Source: Vulcanimicrobiales bacterium (GTDB taxonomy: Bacteria > Vulcanimicrobiota > Vulcanimicrobiia > Vulcanimicrobiales > Vulcanimicrobiaceae). From it: a stretch of DNA of 57,001 bases. The position numbers and the translations under genes are program-made. Under the pieces are notes generated by a model. That model had not been told where the DNA came from. It ran no database searches and worked only from the letters and a program-made list of their open reading frames with translations. Location: assembly GCA_038231455.1 (NCBI GenBank), contig JBBRLI010000019.1, positions 1 through 57,001 of the forward strand. Reading direction: 5' to 3'. Positions 5,398 to 45,729 of this stretch are shown piece after piece (positions within the stretch are counted from its first letter, which is position 1; each line of letters starts with the position of its first letter).

Positions 5398-6942
5398 ATG
5401 AGTAGCCTAGTCGCAGAGGCCACATCTGAGACCTCCCGTATCGAGCACGGCTGGCGACTCGCTATTATTGCGATCGGCGTGATCCTTGCAACGCTTCTCG
5501 AGATGATCGACACCACGATCGTCAATGTCGCCTTACCGAACATCCAAGGCAACCTCGGCGCGACGATCGATGAAGGCACGTACATCATCACCGGGTACAT
5601 CATCGCGAACGTCATCATCGTTCCGCTTACGCCGTGGCTTCAGGCGCGGTTCGGTCTCAAGCGCTACTATCTCGCCTCGATTCTTCTCTTTACGTTTGCC
5701 TCCGTGATGTGCGGGGTATCGGGCTCGTTCGTCGAGCTCGTGATCTGGCGAATCGTGCAAGGTGTCGGCGGCGGCGGTTTGATATCAAGCTCACAAACGA
5801 TTCTCCATGATATTTTTCCGGCGGATAAGCAAGGCGCAGCGCAAGGCATTTTTGCCGGCGGCGTCATTATCGGTCCAACGCTCGGACCGTTGATCGGCGG
5901 CTATATCACCGATAATCTCGACTGGCGCTGGTGCTTTTTTGTCAACGTGCCGATCGCCATCGTTGCTGCGACGACTCTTCTTCTCGTAATGCGTCAAGTC
6001 GAGAAACCTCGCAACATGACGATCGACGGCATTGGGGTCGCGCTCCTCGCGACGGGGCTTGGATCCATGCAGTTCGTACTCGATCAAGGAAATCGTAAGG
6101 ACTGGTTTAGCGACGCCGCTATCTGCGAGTTCTCCGGGCTTGCTGTGCTCGGTCTTCTTGCGTTCGTGTTTTGGGAATTGCGGGCGCAAACGCCGATCAT
6201 CGATTTACGCGTGCTGCGCTATCCCGGTGTCTGGGCGGGTAGCCTACTCGGTGGAACGCTCGGACTCGCACTTTTCGGAAGCCTCGTTGTCCTACCGCAG
6301 TATGCGCAGAGCCAGCTCGGCTTCACAGCGTTCCTGTCCGGACAACTTCTCTCGGTCCGGGCCGTTGCAATGGCACTCTTCCTACCGTTCGGTGCGCGGC
6401 TTGCGACGGGCGGCCGAGTTGACCCGCGCGTGCAAATTGGTATCGGCATGGTCTTGCTCGGATTATCGAGTTTGATGCTCGCATCGGTGACGACAGCAGA
6501 TACGCCTTTTGCAGCGATGATACCATCGCTCATCGTCGCCGGTTTGGGACTTTCCCAGGTGTTCGTTCCGCTGCAGCTCTCCGTCTTCGCCGGACTGAAG
6601 CAGTCCGATGTCCCCAAAGCCGCGTCGTTCTTTAATCTAGCGCGCCAGCTTGGCGGGAGCATCGCGACCGCTTTGCTTGTAACGTTGCTCAGCCGAACGA
6701 CAGCGCAGCATCAGCACGCACTTGCGGGAACCTTAACGCTTGCCTCTTCTTCCATCAACAATTTTCTTCAGCACCACGGCGGTGCTACACCGACGAACTT
6801 GCAGCAGCTAAATCAGATCGTTGCATCGCAAGCATCGGCTCTCAGTTATGCCGACGTCGCGCGGATCTCCGGATACACCACGCTCGTCCTGGCGCCGTTC
6901 GCCCTCGTACTTCGCCGCTCGTCCACACACGCTGACACCTAG
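5398..6942 (+). CDS. DHA2 (EmrB/QacA) family MFS efflux transporter
   Basis: IDTTIVNVALP, WRWCFFVNVPI, VLDQGNRKDWF, LARQLGGSI; about 14 hydrophobic segments; GGAG upstream. Confidence 0.93.
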   Translation: MSSLVAEATSETSRIEHGWRLAIIAIGVILATLLEMIDTTIVNVALPNIQGNLGATIDEGTYIITGYIIANVIIVPLTPWLQARFGLKRYYLASILLFTFASVMCGVSGSFVELVIWRIVQGVGGGGLISSSQTILHDIFPADKQGAAQGIFAGGVIIGPTLGPLIGGYITDNLDWRWCFFVNVPIAIVAATTLLLVMRQVEKPRNMTIDGIGVALLATGLGSMQFVLDQGNRKDWFSDAAICEFSGLAVLGLLAFVFWELRAQTPIIDLRVLRYPGVWAGSLLGGTLGLALFGSLVVLPQYAQSQLGFTAFLSGQLLSVRAVAMALFLPFGARLATGGRVDPRVQIGIGMVLLGLSSLMLASVTTADTPFAAMIPSLIVAGLGLSQVFVPLQLSVFAGLKQSDVPKAASFFNLARQLGGSIATALLVTLLSRTTAQHQHALAGTLTLASSSINNFLQHHGGATPTNLQQLNQIVASQASALSYADVARISGYTTLVLAPFALVLRRSSTHADT

Positions 6943-6956
6943 AGGATCGGACACGA

Positions 6957-8536
6957 ATGCACAACCTGAAAAGTACGCCCATCCTTATCGTCGGCGCAGG
7001 TCCAACCGGGTTGGTCCTTGCCTTAAGTCTCGCGCGCCGAGGCGTGGCGTTCCGAATTATCGACGAACACGACGGACCTGGCACGGAGTCGCGTGCAATG
7101 GGCGTTCAAGCCCGCACGCTGGAATTCTATGCGCAGTTTGGATTTGCGGATGAAGTCGTCTCCCAAGGAATTCCCGCCGACAAGGTCCACTTGCGGCATC
7201 ACGGGCATGACAATAAAGATCACGAATCCGCTATTTTTCGTCTCAAAAATATGGGCGAAGGCCTCACTCCGTTTCCTTTTATGCTCACCTATCCGCAAGA
7301 CGTACACGAACGTTTTCTTGAGAGCAAGCTTGCGGATCTAGGCATCGCCATTGAGCGCAACACAACATTATCCGCTCTGTCCCAAGACGCGAACGGCGTC
7401 CGGGCGACGGTGCAGAATGGTGGGGAATCGGAGACGATTCTCTCAGATACGTCGTGGGCTGCGACGGCGCGAGGAGCCGTGTCCGCGAAGAACTTCAGCT
7501 CGGATTCTCCGGCGGCACCTACAAGCAGCTCTTCTACGTAGCCGACGTGAAGATCGACCGCGGCTTTGACAAGGACATCTACCTCAACCTCGGTGCCAAC
7601 AGCTTTGTCATCATGATGCCCGTTCGCGCAAGCGGAATGCAGCGACTTATCGGTTTGGTTCCTATCGACCTCGACGGCCGCAAGGACGTTACATTCGAGG
7701 ACTTCCGCGGCGGCGTCGAGGGATTGATGGAACTCCGTGTGACCGAAGTGAATTGGTTCTCGACGTACCGGGTTCACCATCGCGTCGCCGACCATTTTCG
7801 GGTCGGGCGCGCCTTCATCGCGGGCGACGCGGGCCATCTTCATAGCCCGGCGGGAGGCCAAGGTATGAACACCGGTATCGCCGATGCCATCAATCTCGGT
7901 TGGAAGATTGCCGATGTCGTGCGTGGTCGCGCGAATCCCGTAATTCTGAACAGCTACGAGTCCGAGCGGATACCATTTGCACGGCGGCTTGTCGCGACCA
8001 CCGACCGCGCTTTCGGCGCAATGGTCACGGGCGGACTGTATGGCGACATTTTCCGGAACTGGGTAGCGCCGAACTTCATCGGGGCGGCCATGCAGTTTGA
8101 AGCAACGCGCCATGCCGCGTTCCGCGCGCTTTCACAAATCGCCATTAGCTATCCGGAGAGTATGCTGAGCATCGGCGAGGCGGGACTTCGCGCCGGCGAT
8201 CGATTGCCTTGGGTTTGCGATGGCGAGCGCGACAACTTCGAGCTACTCACCTCGCTTGATTGGCAAGTGCACGTCTATGGCGAGCCCGAGAGCGGACTCG
8301 GTCAGACGTGCCAAGGACTTGGCGTAGCACTCCATATTTTGCCCTGGAGCAATACGGCTCAGCATGCGGGCGTGCAGCGGAACGCGACTTATCTGATCCG
8401 ACCGGATGGCTACGTCGCGCTCGCCTCGCATACGAAGACGCCTGCAAAGTTGCAGGCCTATGCAGCGCGATTTTTTCTCACGATGGCCGAGCCGACCGAC
8501 CAGCCCACAAGAGCTAGTGGGCGCGCTACGAAATAA
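6957..8536 (+). pseudogene. FAD-dependent monooxygenase (PheA/TfdB-like) interrupted by a one-base frameshift near 7440-7450
   Basis: GAGPTG dinucleotide fold in the 6957 frame. YVVGCDGARS and GDAGHLHSPAGGQGMNTGI continue in the 7454-8536 frame. Real lesion or sequencing error cannot be distinguished. Confidence 0.82.
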
Positions 8537-8557
8537 TACTTGAAACGATCGTTTCAA
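8533..8557. repeat. 24-bp direct repeat copy 2 containing perfect 18-bp palindrome TTGAAACGATCGTTTCAA (candidate TetR operator over a -35)
   Basis: Perfect palindrome at 8540-8557; TTGAAA-17-TACGAT(8563) promoter just before ATG 8578; contains the monooxygenase TAA stop. Confidence 0.85.
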
Positions 8558-8577
8558 CCTGATACGATCGGCGAGCG

Positions 8578-9165
8578 ATGCCGCGCGCTATCGATGGACA
8601 AATCCGCGAGGACCTACTCGAAGCGATCGTCCATGCCGTCGACAATCTTGGGCTGGCGGATTTTTCGCTGCGCCCGCTCGCGGAAGCGATCGGGTCGAGC
8701 CCTCGCACCATTCTCTATCATTTTGGTTCAAAGGAGCAATTGATAGCCGAGATCATCGCGTTCGGTCGCAAGCGGCTGGAGACGCTGTTCTTCGATTGGG
8801 CCCGTGCGAGCGACGGCTACGACCTCCGTGACGCGCTGCGCCGCGTGTGGAGCTGGCTAACAGCCTCGCGACGCCGGGCCTTCATCAAGCTATTTTTCGA
8901 ATTCACGACGGTCGGCATGCGCGACCCGCGTGGACACGGACGAGCCGTCGGCCAGCTTTACGCCGGGTGGCGCGAGCTCTTCGAGCTAGAATTCACGCGC
9001 CGCGGCTTGAGTCGCGAACGCGCAACACTCCTGGCTTCGCTCGTGCTCGCAACGATTCACGGGTTATTACTGGATTTGATCACGACCGGCGACCGCGCAC
9101 GTGTCGATCGCGCGTTCGCCTCGTTTATCGCCGCTATCGAGCTGCCGGTTACGAAAACGCGTTAA
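8578..9165 (+). CDS. TetR/AcrR family transcriptional regulator
   Basis: FSLRPLAEAIGSSPRTILYHFGSKEQL HTH; probably near-leaderless. Confidence 0.92.
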   Translation: MPRAIDGQIREDLLEAIVHAVDNLGLADFSLRPLAEAIGSSPRTILYHFGSKEQLIAEIIAFGRKRLETLFFDWARASDGYDLRDALRRVWSWLTASRRRAFIKLFFEFTTVGMRDPRGHGRAVGQLYAGWRELFELEFTRRGLSRERATLLASLVLATIHGLLLDLITTGDRARVDRAFASFIAAIELPVTKTR

Positions 9166-31318: not shown

Positions 31319-31909
31319 GTGGCAAAAGCAGCCGCCGAAAAATCCGCCAAACCCAAGTCCGAACCCGCGCCCAAGGCACCGAAGGCAACACCGCAGGAGC
31401 GCATCCCGCGCCGCGTCGAGAATCCAACCGTCGACGATCTGCTCGCGATCGTCACCCGCGCGATTTTTCAAGCGGGCATGAGTTGGGCGGCGATCGATGC
31501 GCGCTGGGAGACGTTCCGCTCGGCCTTTGCCGAGTTCAAGGCGCGTGAAGTGGCGGCGTTCGGCGACTTTGAAACCGAGGAACTGATGCTGCGTGAGGGC
31601 ATCATTCACTCGCGAAAAAAAATCGTCGGCACGATTGCAAACGCCCGCGCCCTGCTCGAGATCGAACGCGAATTCGGCAGTTTTCACGCCTACGTCGGCG
31701 GGTTCGATTCATACGCGAGACTTGCGGCCGATCTCAAGAAACGGATCGCGTATCTTGGCGACTTGAGCGTTTACTATCTGCTGTTCCGCTCGGGCGAGCC
31801 CGTGCCGCGTTTTGAGGACTGGGAGAAAACGATCGAGGGCGATCACCCACGCATGCGTGAGATGATCGCCCTCGGGCGTTCGCTTGGAAAGACGAGCGAG
31901 GTGGTTTAG
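31319..31909 (+). CDS. tag: DNA-3-methyladenine glycosylase I-like protein
   Basis: FQAGMSWAAI, FRSAFAEF, GIIHSRKKI..TIANARA, EFGSF; GAGGAGG SD; Lys/Pro/Ala-rich N-terminus. Confidence 0.75.
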   Translation: MAKAAAEKSAKPKSEPAPKAPKATPQERIPRRVENPTVDDLLAIVTRAIFQAGMSWAAIDARWETFRSAFAEFKAREVAAFGDFETEELMLREGIIHSRKKIVGTIANARALLEIEREFGSFHAYVGGFDSYARLAADLKKRIAYLGDLSVYYLLFRSGEPVPRFEDWEKTIEGDHPRMREMIALGRSLGKTSEVV

Positions 31910-32532
31910 CCGGCAGACTGCCAGGCGTGGAGGACGTTCTCCTTGGCTTGCCAGTCGATCGTCGTATCGACGTCTTCACCATCGAGCACGAGCTCGTTAA
32001 CGACGACGGTCGGGATGGATTTGCTGATCGCCATGATGCATTCCGCATAGTCTTTGAGGAAGCGTTTAGCAAGATCGGCCGTGGTGCGGTCGCGCATCGA
32101 GAGCGCGGTTGCGTGCAGCAATTCGTAGCTCACGGTTGCGAGGCTCATCGCGGTTGAGTCATCGCGCAGGTCCTTGGTGACTTTGGTTTTGCGCGTTGCG
32201 TCGATCGCCGCTGCGAAGACACCGGCCACGGCGCTGACGCCTTCCTTCACCGGTGATGCCGCATGGCCGCCCAACGCTTGGAGATGCGATTCGAGCGCTG
32301 CGATGTGCGCGTCGTTAATGCCCTTGATACGCGAGACGATGCTCAAGGCTTCGGGAAATTTCTTGAGGTCATCGTCGCTCGTCTGTTTATTGAGCGGCTG
32401 ACCGATGTGCTTTTCGAGAGCGAGCATGTCGCTCACGTACGTGCGCAGCGACTTGAGGTTATTCTCTGTGATCTGGGTGGTCGAACCCGAGTCGTAACGG
32501 ATGGATTGTTGGCTGCTGGTCGTGTCGTTCAT
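31906..32532 (-). CDS. Ferritin-like (DUF892-related) stress protein
   Basis: YVSDMLALEKH, HIAALE, KDLRDD, SYELLH four-helix pattern. Confidence 0.7.
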   Translation of the reverse strand: MNDTTSSQQSIRYDSGSTTQITENNLKSLRTYVSDMLALEKHIGQPLNKQTSDDDLKKFPEALSIVSRIKGINDAHIAALESHLQALGGHAASPVKEGVSAVAGVFAAAIDATRKTKVTKDLRDDSTAMSLATVSYELLHATALSMRDRTTADLAKRFLKDYAECIMAISKSIPTVVVNELVLDGEDVDTTIDWQAKENVLHAWQSAG

Positions 32533-32585
32533 GGTCGACTCGTACCCCGGCCGAACCCAAACCATGAGGGCGGTCGATGGAGTGC

Positions 32586-34883
32586 TTACTTGCCTGTTAG
32601 TGTCGCCCGTGCCGCGTCGATCTGCGTCCGGTAAGCAAGCAGGGATTGTGCAACCGTCGCGATCCCGGCGCGCGCTTCGTCCCAGTTGCGCTGTTCGATC
32701 GCCTCGCGAATATACGGCATCGTCTTGACGCCGTAGCCGGTATAGAATCCCGGCGCGTAAAGTTGGTGGCGATACCACGGACGACGGGGCAATCCGGTCG
32801 GCGTTGTAAGCGCGTGTTCGGCTGCAAGCAAGGCGAGATCGGTTTTGGCCGCAGATTCCGGCACGGTCGTCCCCGCAAGTGCGAGGTTGAGCGCATCGTC
32901 GTAGGCCTTCGCGCTGCTTTGCAACGCTGCGACGGCGTCATTTAGCGCGTTAAAGTCGAGCCCCGGAACGGCGTCGCGCTTCGTCGGCGGGACGAACGTC
33001 TGCATCGGGTCGGCCGCATCCGTAAAGGCGCCCGAATCGATCAGGGCGTTGCGCTTGAGCGTTGCCTTGCGTTCGTCATCGGCGAGTTTGCCAACTTCGC
33101 GCGCATATTTTGCAATCGTCTGCGCTGAGGGTCCGAACGCATACGGCAACACGTCGCTATCGGCGAAACGTAGCACGATGCGCCCGGCCGTCTTGGCGAG
33201 CGCAATGCCGTAAGCGAACGTCGGATCTTTGAAACGTGTGAACTCATCGAACGAATCAAAGATCGAATGATACGAGCCGTTACCCGACTCACCACCGAAG
33301 CCGAGATTCATCGATGCAACGCCGACATGCTGGACGAACGGCGTGTAGTCCGATCCCGAACCGAGCGCATCGAGATGAAATGCCGTTCCCGGCTCCTCGG
33401 GCGCCGCGACGTCTGCGCCGCCTTCGTCGCTTGATTGCGCATCGGCATAGCCATCAAGGCGCAGTTTCTGCGCGGCGAGCTGACGGCGAGCGATGTCAAC
33501 ACCGCGTTCGGGATCGATGACTTCGCTTGCGATATCGCCCACCATCCGCTCGAGCGAATGCGAGCCCTGCGCGAAGAGAAAGCCGCGACTGTTGCCGTCG
33601 CTGTTGACATAAATCGTGGCGTGGTCGCGTAGTTCGCTTTCGTGCGCCTCCGCCCACGAACTCGATCCGAGCAAACCCGGCTCTTCGCCGTCCCACAGGC
33701 AATAGACGAGCGTCCGTTTGGGTTTCCAGCCGGTTTTCGCAAGTGTTGCGATGGCTTTTGCTTCTTCCATGACTGCGACGGCGCCCGAGAGCGGATCGGC
33801 CGCTCCATTTACCCAGCCGTCATGATGGTTGCCGCGCACGATCCACTCGCCCGGCCGCTCCGAACCCGCCATCTTTGCGATGATGTCGTACGCCGTGACG
33901 TAGTGGAAATCCACAGCAAGCTTGAGATGCACGCGCGCGGGGCCGACACCGAGATGGTACGTGATCGGAAGCGCACCGCGCCAAGCGGCCGGGGCGACGG
34001 GACCGCCGAGCGAGCGCAGGAACGGCAATGCATCGGTGTACGAAATTGGGAGTACCGGAATTTTTGTGAGCGTCGGAATGTCTTTGACCGCGAGGCGCCT
34101 CGCGCCGGGAATCGGCGCTTCGCCGCCGGTCGACGGATCACCGGAATACGTCGGAATGTCGGCGACCGAACCGCGCTGGGCGCTTGTTGCGTTTCTGTAC
34201 GTCCCGTTCGGATAGGCGTCACCGCCCCAATATCCGTCGTCGCGCGGATCGGAATAGATAATGCAGCCGACCGCGCCATGCTCTGCGGCAACTTTGGGTT
34301 TAATACCACGCCACGAACCGCCATAGCGTGCGATCACGATCTTGCCTTTGACATCGATACCGTGCTGCGCGAGCACGTCGTAATCGGCGGGAATGCCGTA
34401 GTTGACGTACACGAGCGGGGCCGTAACGTCGCCGCCGATCGAATAGGCATTGTACGTCGGAAGCTGCTCGCTCGTTTGATTTGATGTGTGGTCTTCTTTG
34501 AGCGGCTTCTCTTGCAGCGAAGCGACGAACGGCGCCGGTCCCAGGAGTTCGAGTTTGCGGTCTTTTGGCGTCGAGAAGAGCACTTGGAACGTCTCGAGTT
34601 TCGCATCCCAGCCCCAGCTCTTGAACTGCGTGACGAGCCACGCTGCGTTATTTTTATCGTACGGCGATCCGAGATGGTGCGGACGTGCCGAGAGCCTTCG
34701 CAGCCACGCTTTCATCTCCGGTGCACTCAGGCTCGCATCGAAGGTGGTCTCCGATGCGCGTTCGGCCGCTGCGTGATCGCGAATGTAGCCGACGATCGGG
34801 CCGGGAGGCGCGACCGGCGAGAGGGCAAGAAGCGGCGCGGCAAGCGAAACGGCAGCGAGCGCACAAAGCAAACGGCGTGTCAT
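32586..34883 (-). CDS. M28 family glutamate carboxypeptidase II-like peptidase (PA and transferrin-receptor dimerisation domains)
   Basis: PHHLGS, YVNYG, IARYG, QRGSV, GNHHDGW, GAADPLSG, WDGEEPGLLGS, GSGSDY, YHS, RPWYRH. Confidence 0.93.
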   Translation of the reverse strand: MTRRLLCALAAVSLAAPLLALSPVAPPGPIVGYIRDHAAAERASETTFDASLSAPEMKAWLRRLSARPHHLGSPYDKNNAAWLVTQFKSWGWDAKLETFQVLFSTPKDRKLELLGPAPFVASLQEKPLKEDHTSNQTSEQLPTYNAYSIGGDVTAPLVYVNYGIPADYDVLAQHGIDVKGKIVIARYGGSWRGIKPKVAAEHGAVGCIIYSDPRDDGYWGGDAYPNGTYRNATSAQRGSVADIPTYSGDPSTGGEAPIPGARRLAVKDIPTLTKIPVLPISYTDALPFLRSLGGPVAPAAWRGALPITYHLGVGPARVHLKLAVDFHYVTAYDIIAKMAGSERPGEWIVRGNHHDGWVNGAADPLSGAVAVMEEAKAIATLAKTGWKPKRTLVYCLWDGEEPGLLGSSSWAEAHESELRDHATIYVNSDGNSRGFLFAQGSHSLERMVGDIASEVIDPERGVDIARRQLAAQKLRLDGYADAQSSDEGGADVAAPEEPGTAFHLDALGSGSDYTPFVQHVGVASMNLGFGGESGNGSYHSIFDSFDEFTRFKDPTFAYGIALAKTAGRIVLRFADSDVLPYAFGPSAQTIAKYAREVGKLADDERKATLKRNALIDSGAFTDAADPMQTFVPPTKRDAVPGLDFNALNDAVAALQSSAKAYDDALNLALAGTTVPESAAKTDLALLAAEHALTTPTGLPRRPWYRHQLYAPGFYTGYGVKTMPYIREAIEQRNWDEARAGIATVAQSLLAYRTQIDAARATLTGK

Positions 34884-34900: not shown

Positions 34901-36292
34901 TTAGGCCGAAACCGCCTCGCGCGAGCGATCTTCGACGTGGACTGCCGGAAGCACGATTGCAAACACCGTGCCCGACGCATCGCTCGAACGGAGTTCCAGT
35001 TTGCCGCCGCTGCGCTCGACCGCGCGCTTGGCGATTGCAAGGCCGAGACCCGAACCCTCGACATCGCCGCGTGAGAGTCCGCGATAGAATCGGTCGTAGA
35101 TGAACGGCTGATCGGCAAGAGCGATACCGGGTCCGCCGTCGCTCACGAGCACTTCGACGCCTTCGCCAGAACGTTTAAGCGCCACGACAATCGGCGCGCC
35201 GGGCGCATACTTTATCGCATTTTCAACGAGATTTCCAACGGCTTCGTGCATCTCGAATCGATCCGCCGAGACGGTTGCCTCAATATCGAGCGCCAGAACG
35301 ACTGGCGTTGCGGGCGCGAGTTGGCGGCGAGACTCGACAACCTGACGCACGAGCTCGCCTAAACTGATGCGATCGGGGGGGCGCTCTTCAACGGCGTCGA
35401 GCTGCGTGAGCAGCATCAGGTTATCGATGAGCGTGCGCATCCGATGGCTTTCGAGCGCGATAAGTTCGAAGATACGCGGCGTGCGCGCGTCGTCTTGCGG
35501 GATGCGCTTCTTGAGCACATCGATAAAACCCATGACGACCGTGAGCGGCGTGCGCAGCTCGTGTCCGGCATCGGCGACGAATTGGCGCATCTGCGCTTCT
35601 GCTGCTTCGCGTTCGGCAAAGGCCGATGCGACCTGCTGCGCCGCGCCGTTGTACGCGCGTGCGAGCGCGGCAAACTCGTTCTTGCCGACGGTATCGATCG
35701 GGCGCGGTGTGAAGTCGCCGGCGGCAAAGCGCTCGAGCGAGTCGGTCACATCGATGAGTGGCCGGAGCGCTTGACTCGTAATCACACGACCGAGAATCCA
35801 CGCCAAAAGTGCCGCAATGAGCCCGAGCGGCACGACCCCAACGAGATAGGCGGTAAGAACTTGTGCGATTCGGTCCGGCGTTTCGAAGATGAATACGCGG
35901 CCACCGAGGAACGGGACGCGTGCGCCTTTGACGCCGATGAGGCTATCGAAGGCGTAAAGCGCACGCGCTCGGCCGTCGGTCGGCGGAATCGGATGCGAGT
36001 CGCGGATACGCTTGTCATCGCGTACGCCGGGCGGAATGATGCGCACGCGCAGACCCGGTCGGTCGAGACGCGAGAGCAACACCTTGCTCGCCGAATCAAA
36101 CGATTGATGGCGATTGCGTGCACGCGCCTCGTAATCGCGGGCGACGCGGGCGCCGGAATCCGCCGCCTCGTTGGTCGCGCGGGCGAAGAGCGTGAAGGCA
36201 AAGACGCTCGATGCGCCCACAACGAGTGCGAGCAAGAGCATCGCCACAAACACGTACCACGCGGTGAGGCGTTTCGCGAGCGATGCAAACAT
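34901..36292 (-). CDS. Sensor histidine kinase (2 TM, HAMP, HisKA, HATPase)
   Basis: FVADAGHELRTPLT, NLVENAIKY, DGGPG, GSGLGLAI. Confidence 0.95.
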   Translation of the reverse strand: MFASLAKRLTAWYVFVAMLLLALVVGASSVFAFTLFARATNEAADSGARVARDYEARARNRHQSFDSASKVLLSRLDRPGLRVRIIPPGVRDDKRIRDSHPIPPTDGRARALYAFDSLIGVKGARVPFLGGRVFIFETPDRIAQVLTAYLVGVVPLGLIAALLAWILGRVITSQALRPLIDVTDSLERFAAGDFTPRPIDTVGKNEFAALARAYNGAAQQVASAFAEREAAEAQMRQFVADAGHELRTPLTVVMGFIDVLKKRIPQDDARTPRIFELIALESHRMRTLIDNLMLLTQLDAVEERPPDRISLGELVRQVVESRRQLAPATPVVLALDIEATVSADRFEMHEAVGNLVENAIKYAPGAPIVVALKRSGEGVEVLVSDGGPGIALADQPFIYDRFYRGLSRGDVEGSGLGLAIAKRAVERSGGKLELRSSDASGTVFAIVLPAVHVEDRSREAVSA

Positions 36293-36296
36293 CGGC

Positions 36297-36980
36297 TTAG
36301 TCGGCGCGCAGGGCGTAGCCCGCGCCTCGAACCGTGCGAATCAGACGCGGTTCGAATCCATTGTCGATCTTTGCGCGTAGGTACGAGACATAGGTCTCGA
36401 CGGCACCCGGACCGACTTCGCGATCCGATCCCCAGACCAGATCTAACAGTTGATCGCGCGTGAAAACACGCTCGGGATTCCGGACGAGCGTAACGAGGAG
36501 TTGAAATTCGCGCGCGGAGAGATCGATACGAACGCTGCCGCGCTTGACTTCGCGCCGGTCGAGATCCACGGAAATGTCGGCGTACGTGAGCACGTCGCGA
36601 TGCTCGAGACGCGGACGACGCAGCGCCGTGTGCAAGCGCACGACGAGTTCGGCGACTTCAAACGGCTTCGCGAGGTAGTCATCGGCGCCGCTCTCGAGGC
36701 CGCGGATCTTCGCGTCGACGTCGCCTTTGGCGCTGAGCATGACGATCGGCGCTTCGGTAATTCGGCGCATCATCGGCAAGAGTTCGATACCGCTGATCTG
36801 CGGCAACATTACATCGAGCACGATCGCATCAGGTCGCCAGTCTTTGACGAGCGTGAGGCCGCTCCGACCATCGGCAGCGGACCGGACTTCAAATCCGTCT
36901 TCGCCGAGCGCGATTTCGAGCAGTTCGCGGAGATGGCGTTCGTCGTCGATGACCGCGATGCGGGGATGCGTCATCTGCAT
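36297..36980 (-). CDS. OmpR-family response regulator (MprA-like)
   Basis: VIDDE, LDVMLP, GADDYLAKPF, VETYVSYLRAKID, IRTVRGAGY; ATG overlaps the upstream TAA (TAATG). Confidence 0.95.
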   Translation of the reverse strand: MQMTHPRIAVIDDERHLRELLEIALGEDGFEVRSAADGRSGLTLVKDWRPDAIVLDVMLPQISGIELLPMMRRITEAPIVMLSAKGDVDAKIRGLESGADDYLAKPFEVAELVVRLHTALRRPRLEHRDVLTYADISVDLDRREVKRGSVRIDLSAREFQLLVTLVRNPERVFTRDQLLDLVWGSDREVGPGAVETYVSYLRAKIDNGFEPRLIRTVRGAGYALRAD

Positions 36981-39900
36981 TACTTCACGCTTCCCCCACC
37001 GGTGCCTAGTGTGGGCGGCTGCGCGAAGAACAAACCAAGTCCCGGGGCATACCCAAAGCCCGGCTGTGCGAACACGAAGCCTTTGGCAACCGCTTCTTCG
37101 TGTTTGAGTGCGGTGATGTAGCTGCACGACACAAACGATCGAATCGTCGCGATGCGTTTGAGCGCCTCCGGGGAGGGTGACGCGCCTGCCCCCGGTTGCT
37201 GCTGACCGCCTGCGGGGGCCTGGCGCACGATCAGCGGACCGCCGCCCTCGCCTTCGCCGCGAGCTCCGCCGCCCGGCGGTGGCCCTTGCGGAGAGCCCGG
37301 AGCTTGGTTACCGAAACGACCGCCGCCCCCGCCCGGGAACTGCGGGCGAACTTCGAGATACCAGGCCGCCGTCTTGGGATCGCCGTGACCGCTCACCGCA
37401 AAATCGGGCGTTTGCGGAATGGGCTGACCGGCGACATAGGCTGCCGCATCGGCACGAATCGCGGACAGCAGCGGCGTTGCGAGTGGTTGGAACTCGGCCG
37501 TGCACTCCTCGCGCGTGGTCGCGAGCGCGAGCGGATCGACGCCGGCCGGCGGCGGCACGAAGCGGAAGCGTCCGCGCACCTGATTGCCGTTCGCATTGCC
37601 GCCACCACCCGGCGCCGCGTCCGCACCGCCACCCGTTGCGGTGCCTGCCGCCGCGCCGCGTCCAGCGCCGCCGCTACTTCCGCGACCGGCATTGCCGAAC
37701 GCCCGTGGGAGCGCTTTATTTCCGGTGTTGAACGAAAACGTCGCCGTATACTGTCGCGGGGTGTTCGGGTTTCCGGCGAGCAGCAATTGACCGCCGCCGT
37801 TGAGCGTCTCCGGCTGGGCGTACGCGAGCGTGGAAAACGCCCCGACTTCCGTGTTGAAGAGATTCGATGCGAAGAACGTCAACCGTCCCGCGCCAAGCGG
37901 ATGCGAGAGCCCGGCATTAACGATTACATAAGGCGAAATGTGCTGGCCGTTGTTCGTGCCGGTGTACTGGGCGTTTGCAAGAAATTCCGTATTGAAATGC
38001 GTTGCGAGCGCGTCGACCGTCAGGCCGCCGCGATGAACGGGCCGGCCCGGGATTTGCGCGCCGATGACGGTCGTTGAGTAGAGCCCGTTCAGCCGTGCGT
38101 CGGCAGCGGTTACGACGGCGCTATTCACCGAGTACGTCGGGAAGATCGAGACGTTCTTGCCCAGCGCGAAGCGCCCGCTGAAATCGAAACCTTGGTACTG
38201 ACGCGTCGTATTGCCGATTGGCTCGCCGACGTAGAGCGTCGGCGCGGCAGCGTTCGCTCCGCAGACGAAAGGCGAATTCCAGTACCCGTTGACGAGTTGC
38301 GTGTAACCACTCGGAATATACCCCGCCGGTTCGCTCGATGCCAGCACTTGCGCGTTAATGAGCTGGCCGGCTTGCGTTTGGCGATACGTGCTGAACGAAA
38401 ACGCGCCGCGCGCGACCTGATGGGTCCACGACAGATCGTAGTTGATCGACGACTGTTTTGCAGGCAAATCGCCCGGGCCACTCACGGTTGCCGTATCAGC
38501 GTAGCAGTTGAAACGCGCCGACGCCGGATCGCTGAGCGTGCGCACGAGTCCGGCGCCCGGTTGCGACGATCCAACCGCAATCGATGCGCTGTAACCGTTG
38601 ACCGAAGTGGGGCGCCAGCCTGCGCTGACGCCGCCCAAAAACGAACGTCCGACACCGACGGTCGTTGCGTACGAGACGTTTTCACCCAGGGTCACTTTAT
38701 CGCTCGCTTTGATCGAGTCGCTGATCTGATACTGCTGCGAGGCGGTTGAGGTGTTCGATGGGATGACGAATTGATTCGTGACGATCGGGGAGAACGTCGT
38801 CTTGCTCGCATACGTCGAACCGCCGGCGACCACCGTATGCCGACCCGGTGAAATCGTGGCGCTAAAGGCGATTCCGCGGCCGAGTGTATCGAAGTCCGAC
38901 GCCGACGGCGAGGACGTACCGTTGACGAAACGGTTGATGTTATCGGAGAACTGATGCTGCGATGAGGTGTATGCCGTCGCGTTGAGCGAGACTTCGCCGA
39001 CGAGGGTCTGAAGCGATCCGTACGTGTACCCAAACTTGCCGTGGCTCGTGTTACCCGGCCCGATGCCGCACGGCAAAAGCGTGACGTACTGCGTGCAGAG
39101 GGAAACGGAATTGGTGTTATTCTGAATCGCCGTGAACTGCAGTGTCGTGCGATCGCCTAGCGAGTAGCGCAATTTTGCGAAATCGCCAAGCGCCACCGAC
39201 TCGCCGCCGTGCGGATACGTAATGCCGCTCGAATCTTTATAGTCTTGGAATGTGAGTTGGTTATTGCCGCCGCGATCGGAATGCAGCGCAGCGATACCGA
39301 GCTTCCCAAAACTGCCGGTGACGCCGAGTTGATAGTTGTACTTATCGTAGGTGCCGTAGGAAACGTTATAGCGCTCTTGCCACGTTTGCGTCGGCTGCAA
39401 CGTGCGGAAATTGACGCCGCCGCCCAGGCCGCCGGCGGTCGGTGAGAAACTCGTGCTCGCCCCGGAGAACAAGTCGGTATTGAGCGAACGTAAATTGGTC
39501 GCCGCACCCGGCGCACCGAGCGGAATGCCATCCAGTGTGACCGATGTCTGCGATTCGTCTTTGCCGCGCAGCGAGATTGTTTGCGCGGCGTCCGGATCGT
39601 TGCTGTCGCTGTTAACGCTGACGCCCGCGATTTTGCCGAGCGCATCGGTGAGCGAATCGGAGATCTTGCGGATGGCGCTGTTCTCATCGACGTCGCGTGA
39701 GGTGATACCGATGCTCGGACGCGCGACCACGCTGCCGATCGTCTTGATGCCGGGCAGCGTCGTCGATCCCAGTTCGATCGCGACGTCCACCTCGCGATTA
39801 TTCGAGACCTGGAATTCTTCGCTTGTTGCCGCGGTAAAGTCACGTTTGACGACGCGAATCCGATAGATCCCCGAGGGGACGTCGGTATACTTGACGATCC

Positions 39901-40105
39901 CGCTTTTGGTCGTGAGAGCACTCGCGATCGTCGGCCCGAGCAAGAGCACGCGCGCATCAGAGAGCGGCAAATGACCGGCTGTATCTTTCACGGTGACCGC
40001 AATTGTACCGACTTCGTTCGATTGCGCCCCCGCGGGGACAACAAAACAGGCCACGAGTAGCAAGGCAATTGCGGCGGAGAACGCGCGCTTCCAGATCTGA
40101 TCCAT
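36980..40105 (-). CDS. TonB-dependent receptor with N-terminal carboxypeptidase-regulatory-like domain and long C-terminal extension
   Basis: Signal peptide, Ig-like domain, plug (DALGKIAGV, ISLRG, VTLDGIPL, GGLGGGVNFRT), barrel ending SNLFN...PRQYTATFSF, then about 246 extra residues. Confidence 0.85.
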   Translation of the reverse strand: MDQIWKRAFSAAIALLLVACFVVPAGAQSNEVGTIAVTVKDTAGHLPLSDARVLLLGPTIASALTTKSGIVKYTDVPSGIYRIRVVKRDFTAATSEEFQVSNNREVDVAIELGSTTLPGIKTIGSVVARPSIGITSRDVDENSAIRKISDSLTDALGKIAGVSVNSDSNDPDAAQTISLRGKDESQTSVTLDGIPLGAPGAATNLRSLNTDLFSGASTSFSPTAGGLGGGVNFRTLQPTQTWQERYNVSYGTYDKYNYQLGVTGSFGKLGIAALHSDRGGNNQLTFQDYKDSSGITYPHGGESVALGDFAKLRYSLGDRTTLQFTAIQNNTNSVSLCTQYVTLLPCGIGPGNTSHGKFGYTYGSLQTLVGEVSLNATAYTSSQHQFSDNINRFVNGTSSPSASDFDTLGRGIAFSATISPGRHTVVAGGSTYASKTTFSPIVTNQFVIPSNTSTASQQYQISDSIKASDKVTLGENVSYATTVGVGRSFLGGVSAGWRPTSVNGYSASIAVGSSQPGAGLVRTLSDPASARFNCYADTATVSGPGDLPAKQSSINYDLSWTHQVARGAFSFSTYRQTQAGQLINAQVLASSEPAGYIPSGYTQLVNGYWNSPFVCGANAAAPTLYVGEPIGNTTRQYQGFDFSGRFALGKNVSIFPTYSVNSAVVTAADARLNGLYSTTVIGAQIPGRPVHRGGLTVDALATHFNTEFLANAQYTGTNNGQHISPYVIVNAGLSHPLGAGRLTFFASNLFNTEVGAFSTLAYAQPETLNGGGQLLLAGNPNTPRQYTATFSFNTGNKALPRAFGNAGRGSSGGAGRGAAAGTATGGGADAAPGGGGNANGNQVRGRFRFVPPPAGVDPLALATTREECTAEFQPLATPLLSAIRADAAAYVAGQPIPQTPDFAVSGHGDPKTAAWYLEVRPQFPGGGGGRFGNQAPGSPQGPPPGGGARGEGEGGGPLIVRQAPAGGQQQPGAGASPSPEALKRIATIRSFVSCSYITALKHEEAVAKGFVFAQPGFGYAPGLGLFFAQPPTLGTGGGSVK

Positions 40106-40128
40106 CAGTCTACGAGTACCACAGTGCC

Positions 40129-40145
40129 CTTAGACCAATCTTGGG
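40129..40145 (-). promoter_or_regulatory. Candidate OmpR-family direct-repeat box upstream of the receptor-RR-HK operon
   Basis: CCCAAG-N5-TCTAAG (11-bp period) followed by TGGTACT shortly before the ATG. Confidence 0.4.
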
Positions 40146-40204
40146 CTCGGAGAGCGGCGCACCACCTGCAACTTCCGCAGCAAGACGAGCGTTCAACCGA
40201 TTCC

Positions 40205-41068
40205 ATGAATCATCGCAGCGTCGCGCGCCTCGTCCAAGCCGAAGCCACAACCGAGGGCGCGGGTTTCCAAATCAATCGCCCCTTCCCCACGCGCGCCCTC
40301 GGCGAAATCGACCCGTTTCTGCTTTTTGATGAAATGGGCCCGATGGACGTTGGTCCCGGTGAGGCCAAAGGGGCACCCGACCATCCGCACCGTGGCTTTG
40401 AAACGATCTCGTACGTTCTCTCGGGTGAGATGGTGCATACCGACTCGCATGGCAACGTCGGCGTGATCGGCGGCGGCGACGTCCAGTGGATGACCGCCGG
40501 CGCCGGCGTGATCCATTCGGAGATGCCGGGCGAGGCAATCATGCGTCAGGGTGGCCGCATGCACGGATTTCAAATTTGGGTCAATCTCCCCGCCAGCGAC
40601 AAAATGACCGCACAACGCTACCAAGACATCGCAGCCGCCGACATTCCGACGTTCGCATCGTCAGACGGAAAAACGCGCGTGCGCGTGATCGCCGGTTCGA
40701 CGAATGGCGTCCGCGGCGCGGTCGAAACGCACACCCCAATTCACTACCTGCACGCGACACTGGCACCCGGCGCCGTTTGGACGCATGACGTCCCCGCTGC
40801 GATGAACGCGATGGCCTACGTGATCGATGGAGCGGTTCGCATCGAGCGCACGGAGGGACGCCGCGGCCAACTCTTCGTCTTTGGCCGCGACGGCGATGGA
40901 ATCGAAGTGCACAACACCGGCACGACCGATGCCGAGATCCTGTTCCTTGCGGGCGAGCCGATCGGCGAACCGATCGCGCGCTACGGACCGTTCGTGATGA
41001 ACACGCGCGAAGAACTCGTCCAGGCCTTCGAGGACTACAACGCCGGGCGATTCGGCGTCATCGCATAA
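40205..41068 (+). CDS. Pirin family protein
   Basis: DPFLLFDEMGP, DHPHRGFET, QWMTAGAGVIHSE, FQIWVNLP, GPFVMNT. Confidence 0.95.
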   Translation: MNHRSVARLVQAEATTEGAGFQINRPFPTRALGEIDPFLLFDEMGPMDVGPGEAKGAPDHPHRGFETISYVLSGEMVHTDSHGNVGVIGGGDVQWMTAGAGVIHSEMPGEAIMRQGGRMHGFQIWVNLPASDKMTAQRYQDIAAADIPTFASSDGKTRVRVIAGSTNGVRGAVETHTPIHYLHATLAPGAVWTHDVPAAMNAMAYVIDGAVRIERTEGRRGQLFVFGRDGDGIEVHNTGTTDAEILFLAGEPIGEPIARYGPFVMNTREELVQAFEDYNAGRFGVIA

Positions 41069-41070
41069 CG

Positions 41071-42924
41071 CTACGCGGGGCTGTGCTCCGCGATGGCCCC
41101 AAGAAAGAGCTCGCCAAAATCGGCGAGCTTTTTATCGCCGACACCGCTGATCGAGCGCATTTGCGCGAGCGTTCGCGGGACCTCGCGCGCCATCGCGCGC
41201 AGCACTGCATCGGAAAAGATAACGAACGCCGGCACGTCCCGCGTGTCGGCGAGATCCTTTCGCACTGCGCGCAAACGCCGGAACAGATCGTCATCAAAGT
41301 TCGCGTCCGCTTCGACCGGCGCGCGCGAACCTTTCTTGCCGCGCGTCTTCGTCAGGCGGGCGCTGGGCGCGCGCATCTGAATCGGTCCTCGTTCGACGAG
41401 CGCTGTACGGCCGAGCGGCGTGAGGCTTACGACGTTGTATCGCGCAGCGTCCTGCTCGATATATTGCTGACGAATGAGTTCGTCGGCGATATGGCGCCAC
41501 GTTTGCCGGTCGGTGTCTTTGCCGATGCCGTACGTCGATAGACTCGCATGACCGTATCGATAGATCTTATCGTTGTCCTCGCCGAGTAAGACGTCGATCG
41601 CGTGAGTGATGCCGAGCGCAAAACCCGACGCTTCGCGGATACGGTAGACGCACGAGAGCAGTTTCTGCGCGTTCGTCGTGGCATCGACGATGGGGCGAGG
41701 CTCCAGGCAATTATCGCATGCACCACAGTTTTCATCAGCCCATGTCTCGCCAAAGTATGCGAGCAACTCGCGCCTGCGGCAGCCCGCCGCATACGCGTAG
41801 CGCGTCATCTGCTCGAGTTGGGCGCGCGCGACGGCTTGTTCGTCCGCATCGTCTTTTTCGAGGATGAAACGCTCGTATTTATTGACATCGCCATGACTGA
41901 AAAAGAGCAGACAGTCGGCGGGCAGTCCGTCACGTCCGGCGCGGCCGGTTTCTTGGTAATAGCCTTCGATATTTTTCGGCAAATCGTAGTGGATGACGAA
42001 GCGCACGTTCGACTTATCGATTCCCATCCCGAAGGCGATCGTCGCGCAGATTACGCGCACGTTGTCGCGCAAAAACTTCTCTTGATTGCGCGCGCGGACG
42101 CGCACGTCAAGACCCGCGTGATAGGGAAGCGCAGGGATGCCGGCGGAACTGAGGCGTTCGGCGAGGGCGTCGGCGCCCGCGCGGCTCTGAACGTAGATGA
42201 TCCCCGCATCGTCGGGTCGCGCCTTGAGCAAAGAAACGATCGCATCGCTTGCGCGCTGTTTATCGGCGATCCGATAGGTGAGATTGGGGCGATTGAAACT
42301 TGCCACGTAGCGCCGCGGCTCGCGCAGCGCTAAGAGCGAGACGATATCGTCGCGCACGCGCGAGGTGGCGGTCGCCGTGAGTGCGATGACCGGCAAGTCC
42401 GGAAACGACTCGCGGAGTTCGGCGATCCGGCGGTATTCCGGGCGGAAGTCGTGACCCCACTCGCTGATGCAGTGCGCTTCATCGACGGCAATCCGCGCGA
42501 GATTCCAGCGCCGAAGATCGGCGATGAAGTTCGGATTGACAAGTCGCTCCGGAGCAACGTAAAGCAGCTTGTAGGCGCCGCGATCGAGGTCACGCGTGCG
42601 CTCGCGGATCTCTTCATAGTCGAGCGATGAATTGAGAAACGTCGCTGCGATCCCGGTCGTGCGCATCGCATCGACTTGATCTTTCATTAGCGCGATCAGC
42701 GGCGAGACGACGAGCGTCAGTCCTTCGGTAAGAATCGCCGGGAGCTGATAGCAGAGCGACTTCCCGCCGCCGGTCGGCAAGAGGGCGAAGACATCGCGGT
42801 CCGCGAGGACGTCGGTGACGATTTCTTCTTGTAAGGGGCGAAACGCGTCGAATCCGAACGCGCGCTTGAGCGCGTCGCGGAGGACGGCCGGCGAAGGCGA
42901 GAGGGCGGCCACGGTCTCCATCAT
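41071..42924 (-). CDS. recQ: ATP-dependent DNA helicase RecQ (with RQC and HRDC)
   Basis: FRPLQ, PTGGGKSLCYQLP, DEAHCISEWGHDFRPEY, ATIAFGMGIDK, QETGRAGRDG, CRR..CGACDNC, HRDC. Confidence 0.97.
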   Translation of the reverse strand: MMETVAALSPSPAVLRDALKRAFGFDAFRPLQEEIVTDVLADRDVFALLPTGGGKSLCYQLPAILTEGLTLVVSPLIALMKDQVDAMRTTGIAATFLNSSLDYEEIRERTRDLDRGAYKLLYVAPERLVNPNFIADLRRWNLARIAVDEAHCISEWGHDFRPEYRRIAELRESFPDLPVIALTATATSRVRDDIVSLLALREPRRYVASFNRPNLTYRIADKQRASDAIVSLLKARPDDAGIIYVQSRAGADALAERLSSAGIPALPYHAGLDVRVRARNQEKFLRDNVRVICATIAFGMGIDKSNVRFVIHYDLPKNIEGYYQETGRAGRDGLPADCLLFFSHGDVNKYERFILEKDDADEQAVARAQLEQMTRYAYAAGCRRRELLAYFGETWADENCGACDNCLEPRPIVDATTNAQKLLSCVYRIREASGFALGITHAIDVLLGEDNDKIYRYGHASLSTYGIGKDTDRQTWRHIADELIRQQYIEQDAARYNVVSLTPLGRTALVERGPIQMRAPSARLTKTRGKKGSRAPVEADANFDDDLFRRLRAVRKDLADTRDVPAFVIFSDAVLRAMAREVPRTLAQMRSISGVGDKKLADFGELFLGAIAEHSPA

Positions 42925-43419: not shown

Positions 43420-43701
43420 CTACTGATGCATGTCCACGAGCATCATGAACGTCGATGCAACGGCTTTGCATTCGTCGGTCGCTGACTTATAGGTCGTCGA
43501 GTGGGCGGCTTTCATTGCGGCACCATCGAGACTCGATCCGGCCGACTTCACCACGGATGTCTTCGTGACTTTGCCTTTTTCATCGAGCTCGACTTTGATC
43601 ATCGCGGTGCCTTCTTGATGCATCTGTTTGGCAATATCCGGGATGTCGACAGGAGCGCGTTCGATGATAGCGGCGGGGGTCGGAGGGCAGCTGGCGGCCA
43701 T
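43420..43701 (-). CDS. Stand-alone TonB C-terminal domain protein lacking a membrane anchor or signal peptide
   Basis: P.IAKQ..EGTAMIKVELDEKGKV...VVKSAG..LDGAAMKAA; AAAGGA SD before ATG. Confidence 0.8.
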   Translation of the reverse strand: MAASCPPTPAAIIERAPVDIPDIAKQMHQEGTAMIKVELDEKGKVTKTSVVKSAGSSLDGAAMKAAHSTTYKSATDECKAVASTFMMLVDMHQ

Positions 43702-43722: not shown

Positions 43723-45729
43723 TTAGACGCCGACCAGAACGGCCGGCAGATGCGTGGTTTCAGGGGTATCGCTGGTACGGAAACCATCGACGAGTGAGAG
43801 CAGGTTCGAGGCGCTGGCTTCAACGTCGCGTGTCGCTCCGTTGACGTTGCTTGCACTCTCGGCATTCGCGCGGGCAACCGTATGAATGAGATCCATTGCG
43901 CTCGTGGCCTCGTGGACGGCGGCGAGCTGTTCGTGAACGGCTTCGCTGACGCGCTCTTGCACGTGGCGCATGGTGTCGATGGAGACGCGCATTTTCTCTG
44001 TACCGGCTTGTTGACGCACGAGCGTCTCGGAGGCTTGACCCGCAGCCGCACTCATGCGGCTGGCGGCATCGGCGACGGCGCGGGTCGAATCGGCTTGTTC
44101 GCGCGCGGCGCGCGAAATGTGATCGATCAGGTCGCTCGACTGCGCGATGGCTTCGGTCGAACGGTGGATCGCTTCGATCGCCTCATCGGCGGCCCGCAGC
44201 GTCTCAATGGATTTATCGGCAGCTCCGGTTGCTTCCGATACCGTCACATCTGTACGCTTGCGCACTTCGGTAACCAGCCCGCTGATCTCACGGGTCGAGC
44301 GGGCAGACATTTCGGCGAGCTTGCGAATTTCATCGGCGACGACCGCGAAGCCCCGGCCATTCTCGCCGGCGCGGGCCGCTTCAATCGCGGCGTTGAGCGC
44401 GAGCAAATTCGTTTGGTCGGCGATCGAGTCGATCGTCTCGACGATGCCGCCGATTTGCTGGCCGACTTCACCGAGGAGCGCGACGGATTTCGCAACCGAC
44501 CCGAGCACTTCGGCGACGCCGCGCGACGCTTCGGCAAGACGCGTCACGGCCTGCACGCCCTGGAGGCTGTTCTCGTTTGCAACGCGGCCGCTCTTCGCGG
44601 CCTCGCCCGCGGCGCGGGCGACTTCACCAACGGATTGGTCGATCTCTTGGAAGGCGACGACGGTGCCTTCGACATCGACCGAAAGGCGTGCGACGCTCTG
44701 GGAGACGGTCGCAAGCGCTCCGACGAGTTCGGTCGTCATGGTGCCGGCGTGAGCGACGGCAGAATCGAGATCCCGCTGTCCGTCCGCGACGCGGCTAACG
44801 CTATTGGAGATCTGTCCGACCGAAACGATCGCGCTATCGATCGCGCGATTTTGCTCGCCGAGACCCGAATCAAGACCGCGGTACGAGATCACGAGACGTT
44901 CGGCGGCGGTGCCAAGCGTCTTCGAGGAGCGGCGCGTATCATCAACGATCCGCTGCAAATTGGAGACGAAGGCATTGAAGCCGGCGGCGAGCTGACCGAT
45001 GCTGTCGTGCGTTGCGACTTCGATGCGCGCGCTCAGGTCGGCGTCACCCTCGGCGAGTTCGTGCAGACGTTTTGCAACGGCGAGAATCGGCTTGTTCACA
45101 AAGCTGATCGTAATGAAGACGATAATAAGCGCGGCGATGACCGATCCGATCGTGATCGCGGCGGTCGTGAATGCGGCAATTTTGGCCGTCGAGAGCACGG
45201 ATGCTTGCGCTGTCGTGATCTTGTCTTCTTCCGTTTTTCCAACCGCGGTCAGCGCCGCGGCGAGTTGCACGTAGAATGAATTTTCGTTCGAAACGATCTT
45301 GGCGATCGCGGCCTTATCGCTCTTTTTTGCCGCCTCTTCCATTTTTTTCGAGTCGTCGCGGAACTGCTCGACCGACGTCAAGACCGTTTCCCACTGCGTC
45401 CGCAGCGACTTGTCGGTCGTGGTTTTCAGGAGCGAATCAGAGGCCGTATCGAAACGCGCAAATGCGTCTTTGGTGACGGCGAGTTCGACGGGATCGTTGC
45501 TGGATGCGTATGCGATCTGCGATGCACGGATCTCAACGACGGCTTGCGAAGCGCGTGCGGCCGATTGATACACCGGGAATGCGTTCTTCGAAATATCGTT
45601 CAACGCGTTTTGGGTGATCGTCGATTGGTAGAGCGACGTACCCGCGATCGCAAGGATCAGAACGACGAGCGACCCGAGTCCAAGACCGAGGCGCGCGTTG
45701 AGCGATTGGAAATTGAGTCGAAAACGCAT
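43723..45729 (-). CDS. Methyl-accepting chemotaxis protein (helical sensor, HAMP, MA domain)
   Basis: Two TM segments; [38 protein letters not shown]. Confidence 0.96.

Follow-up and report, generated by a model that had tools for sequence, protein, structure and literature searches.

The TonB-dependent transducers, such as FecA, FpvA, HasR, and FoxA, carry an N-terminal STN domain and have an anti-sigma factor and an extracytoplasmic function (ECF) sigma factor as partners, and the siderophore receptors PfeA and PirA of Pseudomonas aeruginosa are regulated by the two-component systems PfeS/PfeR and PirS/PirR. The extra domains of the Oar/SusC-like group are N-terminal, and to our knowledge accessory domains of TonB-dependent receptors have been described only at the N-terminus. 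A peptidoglycan-binding OmpA_C domain is found in OmpA, which has an 8-strand barrel, and the pho box of PhoB consists of direct repeats that form a class II activator site in place of the -35 element. Here, we analyzed a receptor operon in a 57,001-nucleotide (nt) stretch of DNA (hereafter the window) from a Vulcanimicrobiales bacterium (GenBank assembly GCA_038231455.1, contig JBBRLI010000019.1, positions 1 to 57,001 of the forward strand). The minus strand holds all three genes of interest, encoding a TonB-dependent receptor, an OmpR-type regulator, and a sensor kinase, and the receptor is predicted to continue beyond its barrel into a further folded domain (hereafter the tail), which is conserved among related loci. 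The features of the locus, by position in the window, are as follows.

40106-40146, minus strand: promoter- and operator-like block GCCCAAGATTGGTCTAAGGGCACTGTGGTACTCGTAGACTG, directly upstream of the receptor ATG.
36980-40105, minus strand: TonB-dependent receptor gene with C-terminal tail, 1041 amino acids plus stop (open reading frame [ORF], Pfam, AlphaFold model, Foldseek).
40022-40105, minus strand: signal peptide, about residues 1-28, from the sequence, with a putative cleavage site between VPAGA and QS; this N-terminus is conserved in homologs.
39770-40006, minus strand: CarboxypepD_reg-like N-terminal domain, residues 34-112 (Pfam, 31.8 bits, just below the cut-off of 32.3).
39470-39661, minus strand: Plug domain core, residues 149-212 (PF07715, 33.5 bits, cut-off 23.9).
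37727-39379, minus strand: predicted 22-strand beta-barrel, residues 243-793 (AlphaFold strand list, Foldseek).
37568-37726, minus strand: Gly/Ala/Pro-rich disordered linker, residues 794-846, variable in length and sequence (predicted local distance difference test [pLDDT] score below 50).
37340-37567, minus strand: first half of the tail, residues 847-922, with PPPAGVDPL, the invariant C868, a helix, and a beta-hairpin bearing a near-invariant His (pLDDT above 90 in the tail-only model; conservation).
37175-37339, minus strand: disordered Gly/Pro/Gln loop, residues 923-977, which is inserted into the tail domain and differs in length among homologs (low pLDDT).
37010-37174, minus strand: second half of the tail, residues 978-1032, with a helix ending in the invariant C994, a strand, a short helix, and a terminal beta-hairpin (model and conservation).
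36983-37009, minus strand: conserved C-terminal motif LGTGGGSVK, with the purine-rich codons GGTGGGGGAAGC, 9 nt before the regulator ATG.
36297-36980, minus strand: OmpR/PhoB-family response regulator, 227 amino acids (Pfam), whose ATG overlaps the receptor TAA.
34901-36292, minus strand: sensor histidine kinase, 463 amino acids (ORF, Pfam), with a first transmembrane segment at about residues 11-36, a periplasmic loop at about 37-146 (positions 35855-36184), a second transmembrane segment, HAMP, HisKA, and HATPase_c; the transmembrane limits are putative and come from the sequence.

By its predicted fold and its parts, the receptor is a TonB-dependent transporter. In the full-length AlphaFold model, built on 19 family members, 22 long strands lie between residues 243 and 793, and Foldseek matched the model to Cir, BtuB, FrpB, FpvA, and PfeA with E values of 1e-20 to 1e-17 over about 580-660 columns; the structures of FecA and PirA were also among the matches of the barrel and plug fold. 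Neither the Pfam nor the NCBIfam barrel model matches the window protein, whose barrel has diverged too far for them. At the N-terminal side, PF13620 is precomputed on all 18 database homologs and the Plug domain on 17 of the 18, and DESQT...LDGIPL is invariant in the alignment. The strand KTIGSVVAR before the Plug domain, conserved as LKxIGxVxAR, is a candidate TonB box, and the same genome has seven TonB_C and three ExbD matches. The last strand is placed at residues 785-793, in the PRQYTATFSF region, where the initial annotation had set the end of the barrel. Beyond it the polypeptide runs for 249 residues (793/794-1041), a variant feature that does not exclude the TonB-dependent transporter fold; the extension previously given as 246 residues was therefore real and needed only a small correction of its length. 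Since the number of strands is even and both barrel ends lie on the periplasmic side, we infer that the tail is periplasmic. Of the 11 frames with a Plug domain in this genome, only the window receptor was extended in this way, and the other 10 end in a strand-like C-terminus; the tail is single-copy in this genome.

The tail domain comprises ~190 amino acids and is modeled as a compact alpha/beta fold with two invariant Cys residues. In a tail-only model built on 63 sequences, pLDDT exceeded 90 over tail residues ~55-130 and ~185-240 with the disordered loop between them, and the elements follow the order helix, hairpin, loop, helix, strand, helix, hairpin. The two cysteines and the Gly/Pro/Gln stretch noted in the initial annotation (EEC and VSC) thus reappear as C868, C994, and the disordered loop; the hydrophobic tail that it described is modeled as the last beta-hairpin followed by LGTGGGSVK rather than as a segment within the membrane. 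When residues 780-1041 served as the query of a word-indexed search, 18 proteins of 1003-1120 amino acids were found, all of which have the tail, with a query coverage of 28-100% (100% in 12 of them). The alignment keeps PPPxGxDPL, C868 before the helix, the near-invariant His, C994 within FxSCxY, and the LGTGGGSVK end, and the Gly/Pro-rich loop between the two halves is variable. The tail has many invariant polar and aromatic residues, which points to a partner or ligand that is likewise conserved.

The tail was also followed across related loci (80 loci, one genome per species). It is present in 60 of the 62 loci with a readable receptor 3' end, so that a stop after the barrel, which the initial annotation had named as the sign of a fusion artifact, is not the rule; of the other two loci, L058 is ambiguous and L047 has no tail. 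L047 is a paralog in a genome that also holds L026, with 68% identity over 803 residues, and it keeps a regulator and kinase, with the pair 322 nt downstream. Because L047 stops just past the last strand (by 14 residues), the module boundary appears to lie where the model places it. Conversely, two proteins, P0023 (233 amino acids) and P0028 (213 amino acids), consist of a signal peptide and the tail domain alone, and therefore the tail domain can exist as a free secreted protein; a metagenome scan found no genomic locus for either. As judged from these comparisons, the tail is a conserved, separable module. A short-frame tail match in genome G174 was rejected as a stand-alone gene, as it belongs to a frameshifted second receptor copy. 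This copy, L104 (G174:C1:2822000-2834000, positions 5804-8728, minus strand), lies in three frames (N-terminal part, barrel, and tail) in a single-contig genome, and could be either a pseudogene or a long-read frameshift error.

The tail matches no Pfam family and had no clear match to a solved fold. Pfam gave nothing in the tail part of 63 tails at E<=1, including OmpA (PF00691), LysM, and other peptidoglycan-binding families; the best PDB profile hit with the tail had an E value of 0.68 and the best Foldseek hit of the tail-only model against PDB an E value of 2.3; with VIA-align, the highest Z among 48,161 chains was 3.4, for a weak resemblance to the type IV pilin head, and there was nothing at Z>=5; and the ESM Atlas returned unnamed clusters with a best score of 0.88. 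An exhaustive phmmer search of 1.84 billion representatives yielded 35 proteins at E<=0.001, and the eight of them that were inspected comprised six receptor-family fragments and the two stand-alone forms. The distribution is narrow. Nearly all of the 80 loci are labeled Vulcanimicrobiota, Eremiobacterota, or WPS-2, and a tail match was found in 75 of 401 sampled genomes of the phylum (a tally that includes three unpublished genomes), almost all of them in the window's family (73 of its 296 genomes), and in none of 100 genomes from 19 other families. With the family profile, 58 of the 151 family genomes at least 90% complete had a match (a tally that includes two unpublished genomes), and 29 of 55 genera were represented; no other result depends on the unpublished genomes. 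Nine contigs stand in records titled otherwise (L008, L023, L039, L042, L044, L048, L051, L073, and L074; the titles are Limnocylindrales, Armatimonadota, Acidiferrales, Limnocylindria, Janthinobacterium, Rhodospirillales, Binatia, and Alphaproteobacteria), and they are probably mis-binned because their receptor, recQ, and regulator sequences nest within those of Vulcanimicrobiota.

The receptor and the two-component genes are tightly joined in the window. The receptor TAA and the regulator ATG overlap as TAATG, with one A in common (junction GTGAAGTAATGCAGATG), and the regulator stop and the kinase ATG are 4 nt apart (junction GACTAAGCCGATG); both junctions were read directly and agree with the initial annotation. 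The regulator has Response_reg and Trans_reg_C domains, and the kinase has HAMP, HisKA, and HATPase_c domains by Pfam together with two transmembrane segments read from its sequence. No NCBIfam equivalog scored above its cut-off for either protein, and the subfamily of this OmpR/PhoB-type system thus has no name. The codons of GGGSVK (GGTGGGGGAAGCGTGAAG, 36983-37003, minus strand) double as the purine-rich stretch upstream of the regulator ATG; because the peptide is kept (as GGGSLK) where no regulator gene follows, the constraint on it does not appear to be at the nucleotide level alone.

Across the related loci the linkage was frequent and incomplete. The 80 loci comprise 35 adjacent, 6 nearby, and 13 without a pair, 24 that are uninformative at contig ends, the tail-less L047, and the frameshift-fragmented L064. 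Thus, in 35 of 54 informative loci, from many genera, the regulator start is placed -10 to +47 nt relative to the receptor stop, with the kinase next, as the neighbor check proposed in the initial annotation would have it; in six, unrelated genes (PhzF-like, dehydrogenase) intervene and the pair is 0.5-3.2 kb downstream, and in 13 no related regulator was found in the fetched locus, the downstream flanks of which were 5.2-6.0 kb, except for 2.7 kb in L078. In a FastTree phylogeny of 72 receptor cores, rooted at the midpoint and shown without supports, one clade contained 34 of the 35 adjacent cases, and the other clade held the separated and absent cases together with the adjacent L051. Five genomes of the absent class each had one tail-bearing receptor and a related pair (57-69% identity) 31 kb off or on other contigs. 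In a quick tree of the regulators, the adjacent ones formed one clade (Shimodaira-Hasegawa-like approximate likelihood ratio test [SH-aLRT] 95), and three distant ones grouped with the nearby ones (SH-aLRT 91); the same tree leaves open the order of these two clades and of a 63% paralog from the window genome. Because tail-bearing receptors persist with the pair distant or outside the fetched flank, we concluded that the coupling is probably old and widespread but dispensable, and that the tail survives uncoupling. We rejected tail homology for four small ORFs that lie between the receptor and regulator genes of clade B loci, as they had no match to the tail hidden Markov model or to Pfam; three of them (L053, L068, and L063) are Arg-rich antisense-type frames.

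The block upstream of the receptor contains the direct repeats CCCAAG and TCTAAG 11 nt apart, followed by TGT and GGTACT, which resemble an extended -10 element, with 9 nt to the ATG and no Shine-Dalgarno sequence. In the family, a seeded expectation-maximization (EM) model gave the consensus tTCyCAGG-n4-tCnnAG-n8-TGnCAGGAT-n9-11-ATG, at a fixed distance and at >=13 bits in 68 of 81 upstream regions from both clades, a description of receptor sites that is circular in that the model was trained on the same sites. Independent sites came from the regulator genes that do not abut a receptor: in 10 of 14, a site of 7.5-17.2 bits ends 0-22 nt before the estimated start, compared with a null 99th percentile of 4.9 bits in which true receptor sites are still included. 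Since the two-block box is rare in the window genome (18 matches of >=16 bits in 7.4 million positions), it does not appear to be a general promoter. A regulon scan of this genome with the two-block box was uninformative, as its own site scores only 7.4 bits. The shared box supports an autoregulated regulon, because it precedes both the receptor and the non-adjacent regulator genes, and we infer that the encoded regulator would be the protein that binds it. The -10-like hexamer ends 9-11 nt before the start codon in the window (40103-40146, minus strand) and in L001-L080, without a Shine-Dalgarno sequence, and with this spacing the mRNAs of the receptor and of the separated regulator genes may be leaderless or nearly so.

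Taken together, we proposed that this is a two-component-controlled transporter in which the tail serves the transporter itself, a reading that we consider about evenly balanced between right and wrong. Under this proposal, the kinase would sense a periplasmic cue linked to the substrate, as in PfeS/PfeR-PfeA, and the phosphorylated regulator would bind the box, which overlaps the -35 position of an extended -10-like promoter, and would activate the receptor and its own operon (positive autoregulation with the geometry of a pho box); the tail would bind a conserved periplasmic partner or a ligand. We favor a role of the tail in the transporter because conservation is much higher in the tail core than in the kinase sensor, and because the tail is retained in genomes where the kinase genes now lie elsewhere. 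A number of points weigh against this proposal. The accessory role in transport is argued by exclusion, and communication between tail and kinase would agree just as well with the TAATG coupling and with the joint presence of tail and box in every clade. On the side of the promoter, the binding of the box by the regulator is drawn from geometry and footprinting alone, the receptor sites are subject to the circularity mentioned above, and 4 of the 14 separated regulator genes had no site; the sites at the other 10 fit the positive autoregulation proposed in the initial annotation. The candidate OmpR box that it placed upstream of the operon does contain a direct repeat, but the window copy is diverged from the family consensus, with a spacer 3 nt shorter and a score of 6.5-7.4 bits; this diverged form is common to the closest relative, L001.

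The explanation put forward in the initial annotation was that the tethered periplasmic tail reports the state of the transporter (substrate loading or TonB action) to the sensor domain of the kinase, which we regard as unlikely. The placement of the tail would permit such contact, as it is periplasmic by topology and its disordered linker of ~53 residues could cross much of the periplasm, but the surface that it would have to meet is poorly conserved: the periplasmic loop of the kinase has only three conserved positions (R78, G80, and G131) together with a length-variable Pro-rich insert, and is the fastest-evolving part of the system, with a mean pairwise difference of 0.65 compared with 0.46 for the tail core and 0.36 for the cytoplasmic part of the kinase. 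The correlation of distances between tail and sensor (r 0.864) was no higher than that between tail and cytoplasmic part (r 0.868), a mirror-tree style comparison that is uninformative because all parts share one phylogeny, and the predicted complex of kinase residues 34-150 with tail residues 50-249 scored 0.01 against a mark of 0.32, which carries no weight for or against contact. The overlap at the regulator start is kept in 35 loci, only one of the 11 Plug frames of the genome bears the tail and it sits in an operon with a regulator and kinase pair, the adjacent L051 on the other side of the receptor tree indicates that the linkage may be ancestral, and receptor and regulator keep the same box when unlinked, so that unlinked genomes do not exclude a functional pair. 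In contrast, L047 lost its tail and keeps regulator and kinase, stand-alone secreted tails exist (P0023 and P0028), and 13 of the 54 loci have no pair in the fetched flank. Tail-bearing receptors apart from two-component genes, which the initial annotation itself held would speak against its proposal, therefore exist (the 13 and the six nearby loci). If the tail did signal, it would constitute a second, independently evolved route from receptor to cytoplasm beside that of the N-terminal domain and anti-sigma factor, within one autoregulated module with a shared box; we consider this a doubtful prospect.

A purely structural role, in which the tail tethers the receptor to peptidoglycan or the inner membrane, or offers a handle for assembly or quality control without any function in sensing or with substrate, seems to us improbable. 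The succession of a barrel, a Pro/Gly/Ala hinge, and, in the periplasm, a small alpha/beta domain bearing two Cys residues is reminiscent of OmpA, and the tail is kept whatever its gene neighbors; nevertheless, no match to OmpA, LysM, or other peptidoglycan-binding families appeared in the 63 tails and no such fold among the structure matches, the genome has a separate OmpA-domain gene, and the presence of the receptor in only 58 of the 151 near-complete family genomes is a poor fit to a core envelope tether. That the extension arose artificially, through an overlooked stop, a frameshift, or a chimeric assembly of a receptor with a separate downstream gene, is hardly credible: frameshifted copies do occur in a few related long-read assemblies (L003, L035, L064, and L077, and also L104), but the architecture is uninterrupted in 56 independent loci and in 18 database proteins from several sources, and 98% of the words sampled from the stretch recur in a second data set, although this could be the source sample itself. 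Our preferred reading therefore remains that of a tail serving the transporter.

The receptor has a pirin gene and recQ upstream and the regulator, the kinase, and an M28 peptidase gene downstream. In 48 related loci, the gene next upstream of the receptor, in the same orientation, is recQ (41071-42924, minus strand, in the window), and the divergent pirin gene (40124-41068, plus strand) stands between the two only in the window and L001. Beyond recQ, 3.3 kb upstream of the receptor, a 93-amino-acid ORF (43420-43701, minus strand) consists of a TonB_C domain alone (46.9 bits) and lies directly downstream of a methyl-accepting chemotaxis gene (43723-45729, minus strand; MCPsignal and HAMP). On the other side, a 290-amino-acid frame without a Pfam match (31906-32778, minus strand) is found downstream of the kinase in 17 related loci, mostly directly; the M28/PA/TFR-dimer peptidase gene (32586-34883, minus strand; in four loci) sits between this frame and the kinase. 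In the non-abutting loci, a gene of ~120 amino acids without a Pfam match is divergent from the regulator (L082:997-1362 and L044:9304-9684, both minus strand, and also in L033, L053, L063, L068, and L083). Two compared copies were 34% identical (E 3e-14), and in four loci the gene has its own direct-repeat box upstream; tblastn did not find it in the window's genome.

The finding concerns Vulcanimicrobiota/Eremiobacterota, an uncultured soil phylum with almost no experimental biology. With a single receptor, regulator, kinase, and promoter box, the operon is compact and open to experiment, and the tail-less paralog L047 and the stand-alone tail proteins provide natural controls. It opens the question of whether outer-membrane transport can be wired to two-component signaling. 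Among the full-text search results that were inspected, none describes a C-terminal periplasmic domain on a TonB-dependent receptor; one match concerned the lipoprotein BtuG and not the transporter (PMC10404256). On the predicted structure, this class of transporters has a new building block in a C-terminal periplasmic domain that is modeled with high confidence and matches no family or fold.

The locus shares some traits with each of the described systems. Like the Oar/SusC-like receptors with a CarboxypepD_reg domain, the window receptor has an N-terminal carboxypeptidase-regulatory-like domain before its plug, but its C-terminal domain had no counterpart in the literature searched. As in OmpA-type proteins, its barrel is joined by a flexible hinge to a small C-terminal domain in the periplasm, and it differs from them in its 22-strand barrel and in the lack of an OmpA family match for the tail. 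The TonB-dependent transducers resemble it more closely, in that a receptor with an extra periplasmic domain stands beside regulators of its own expression and the folds of FpvA and FecA match; in contrast, the Pfam scan (E<=0.01) detected no STN domain in the window receptor, its extra domain is C-terminal and of unmatched fold, and its neighbors are a response regulator and a histidine kinase, with no anti-sigma factor or ECF sigma genes among them. In its promoter, two direct repeats about 11 nt apart lie directly upstream of a -10 element as in the pho box, whereas the repeat is of the TCyCAG type and the putative promoter is 9-11 nt from the start codon. The receptors PfeA and PirA, both among the structural matches, are likewise encoded beside an OmpR-family regulator and a sensor kinase. 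Those two receptors terminate with their barrel and show no translational coupling to a regulator gene behind them, whereas the window receptor is the first gene of its operon and has a tail; by this analogy, the regulatory logic proposed here appears closest to that of two-component-regulated receptors such as PfeA with PfeS/PfeR.

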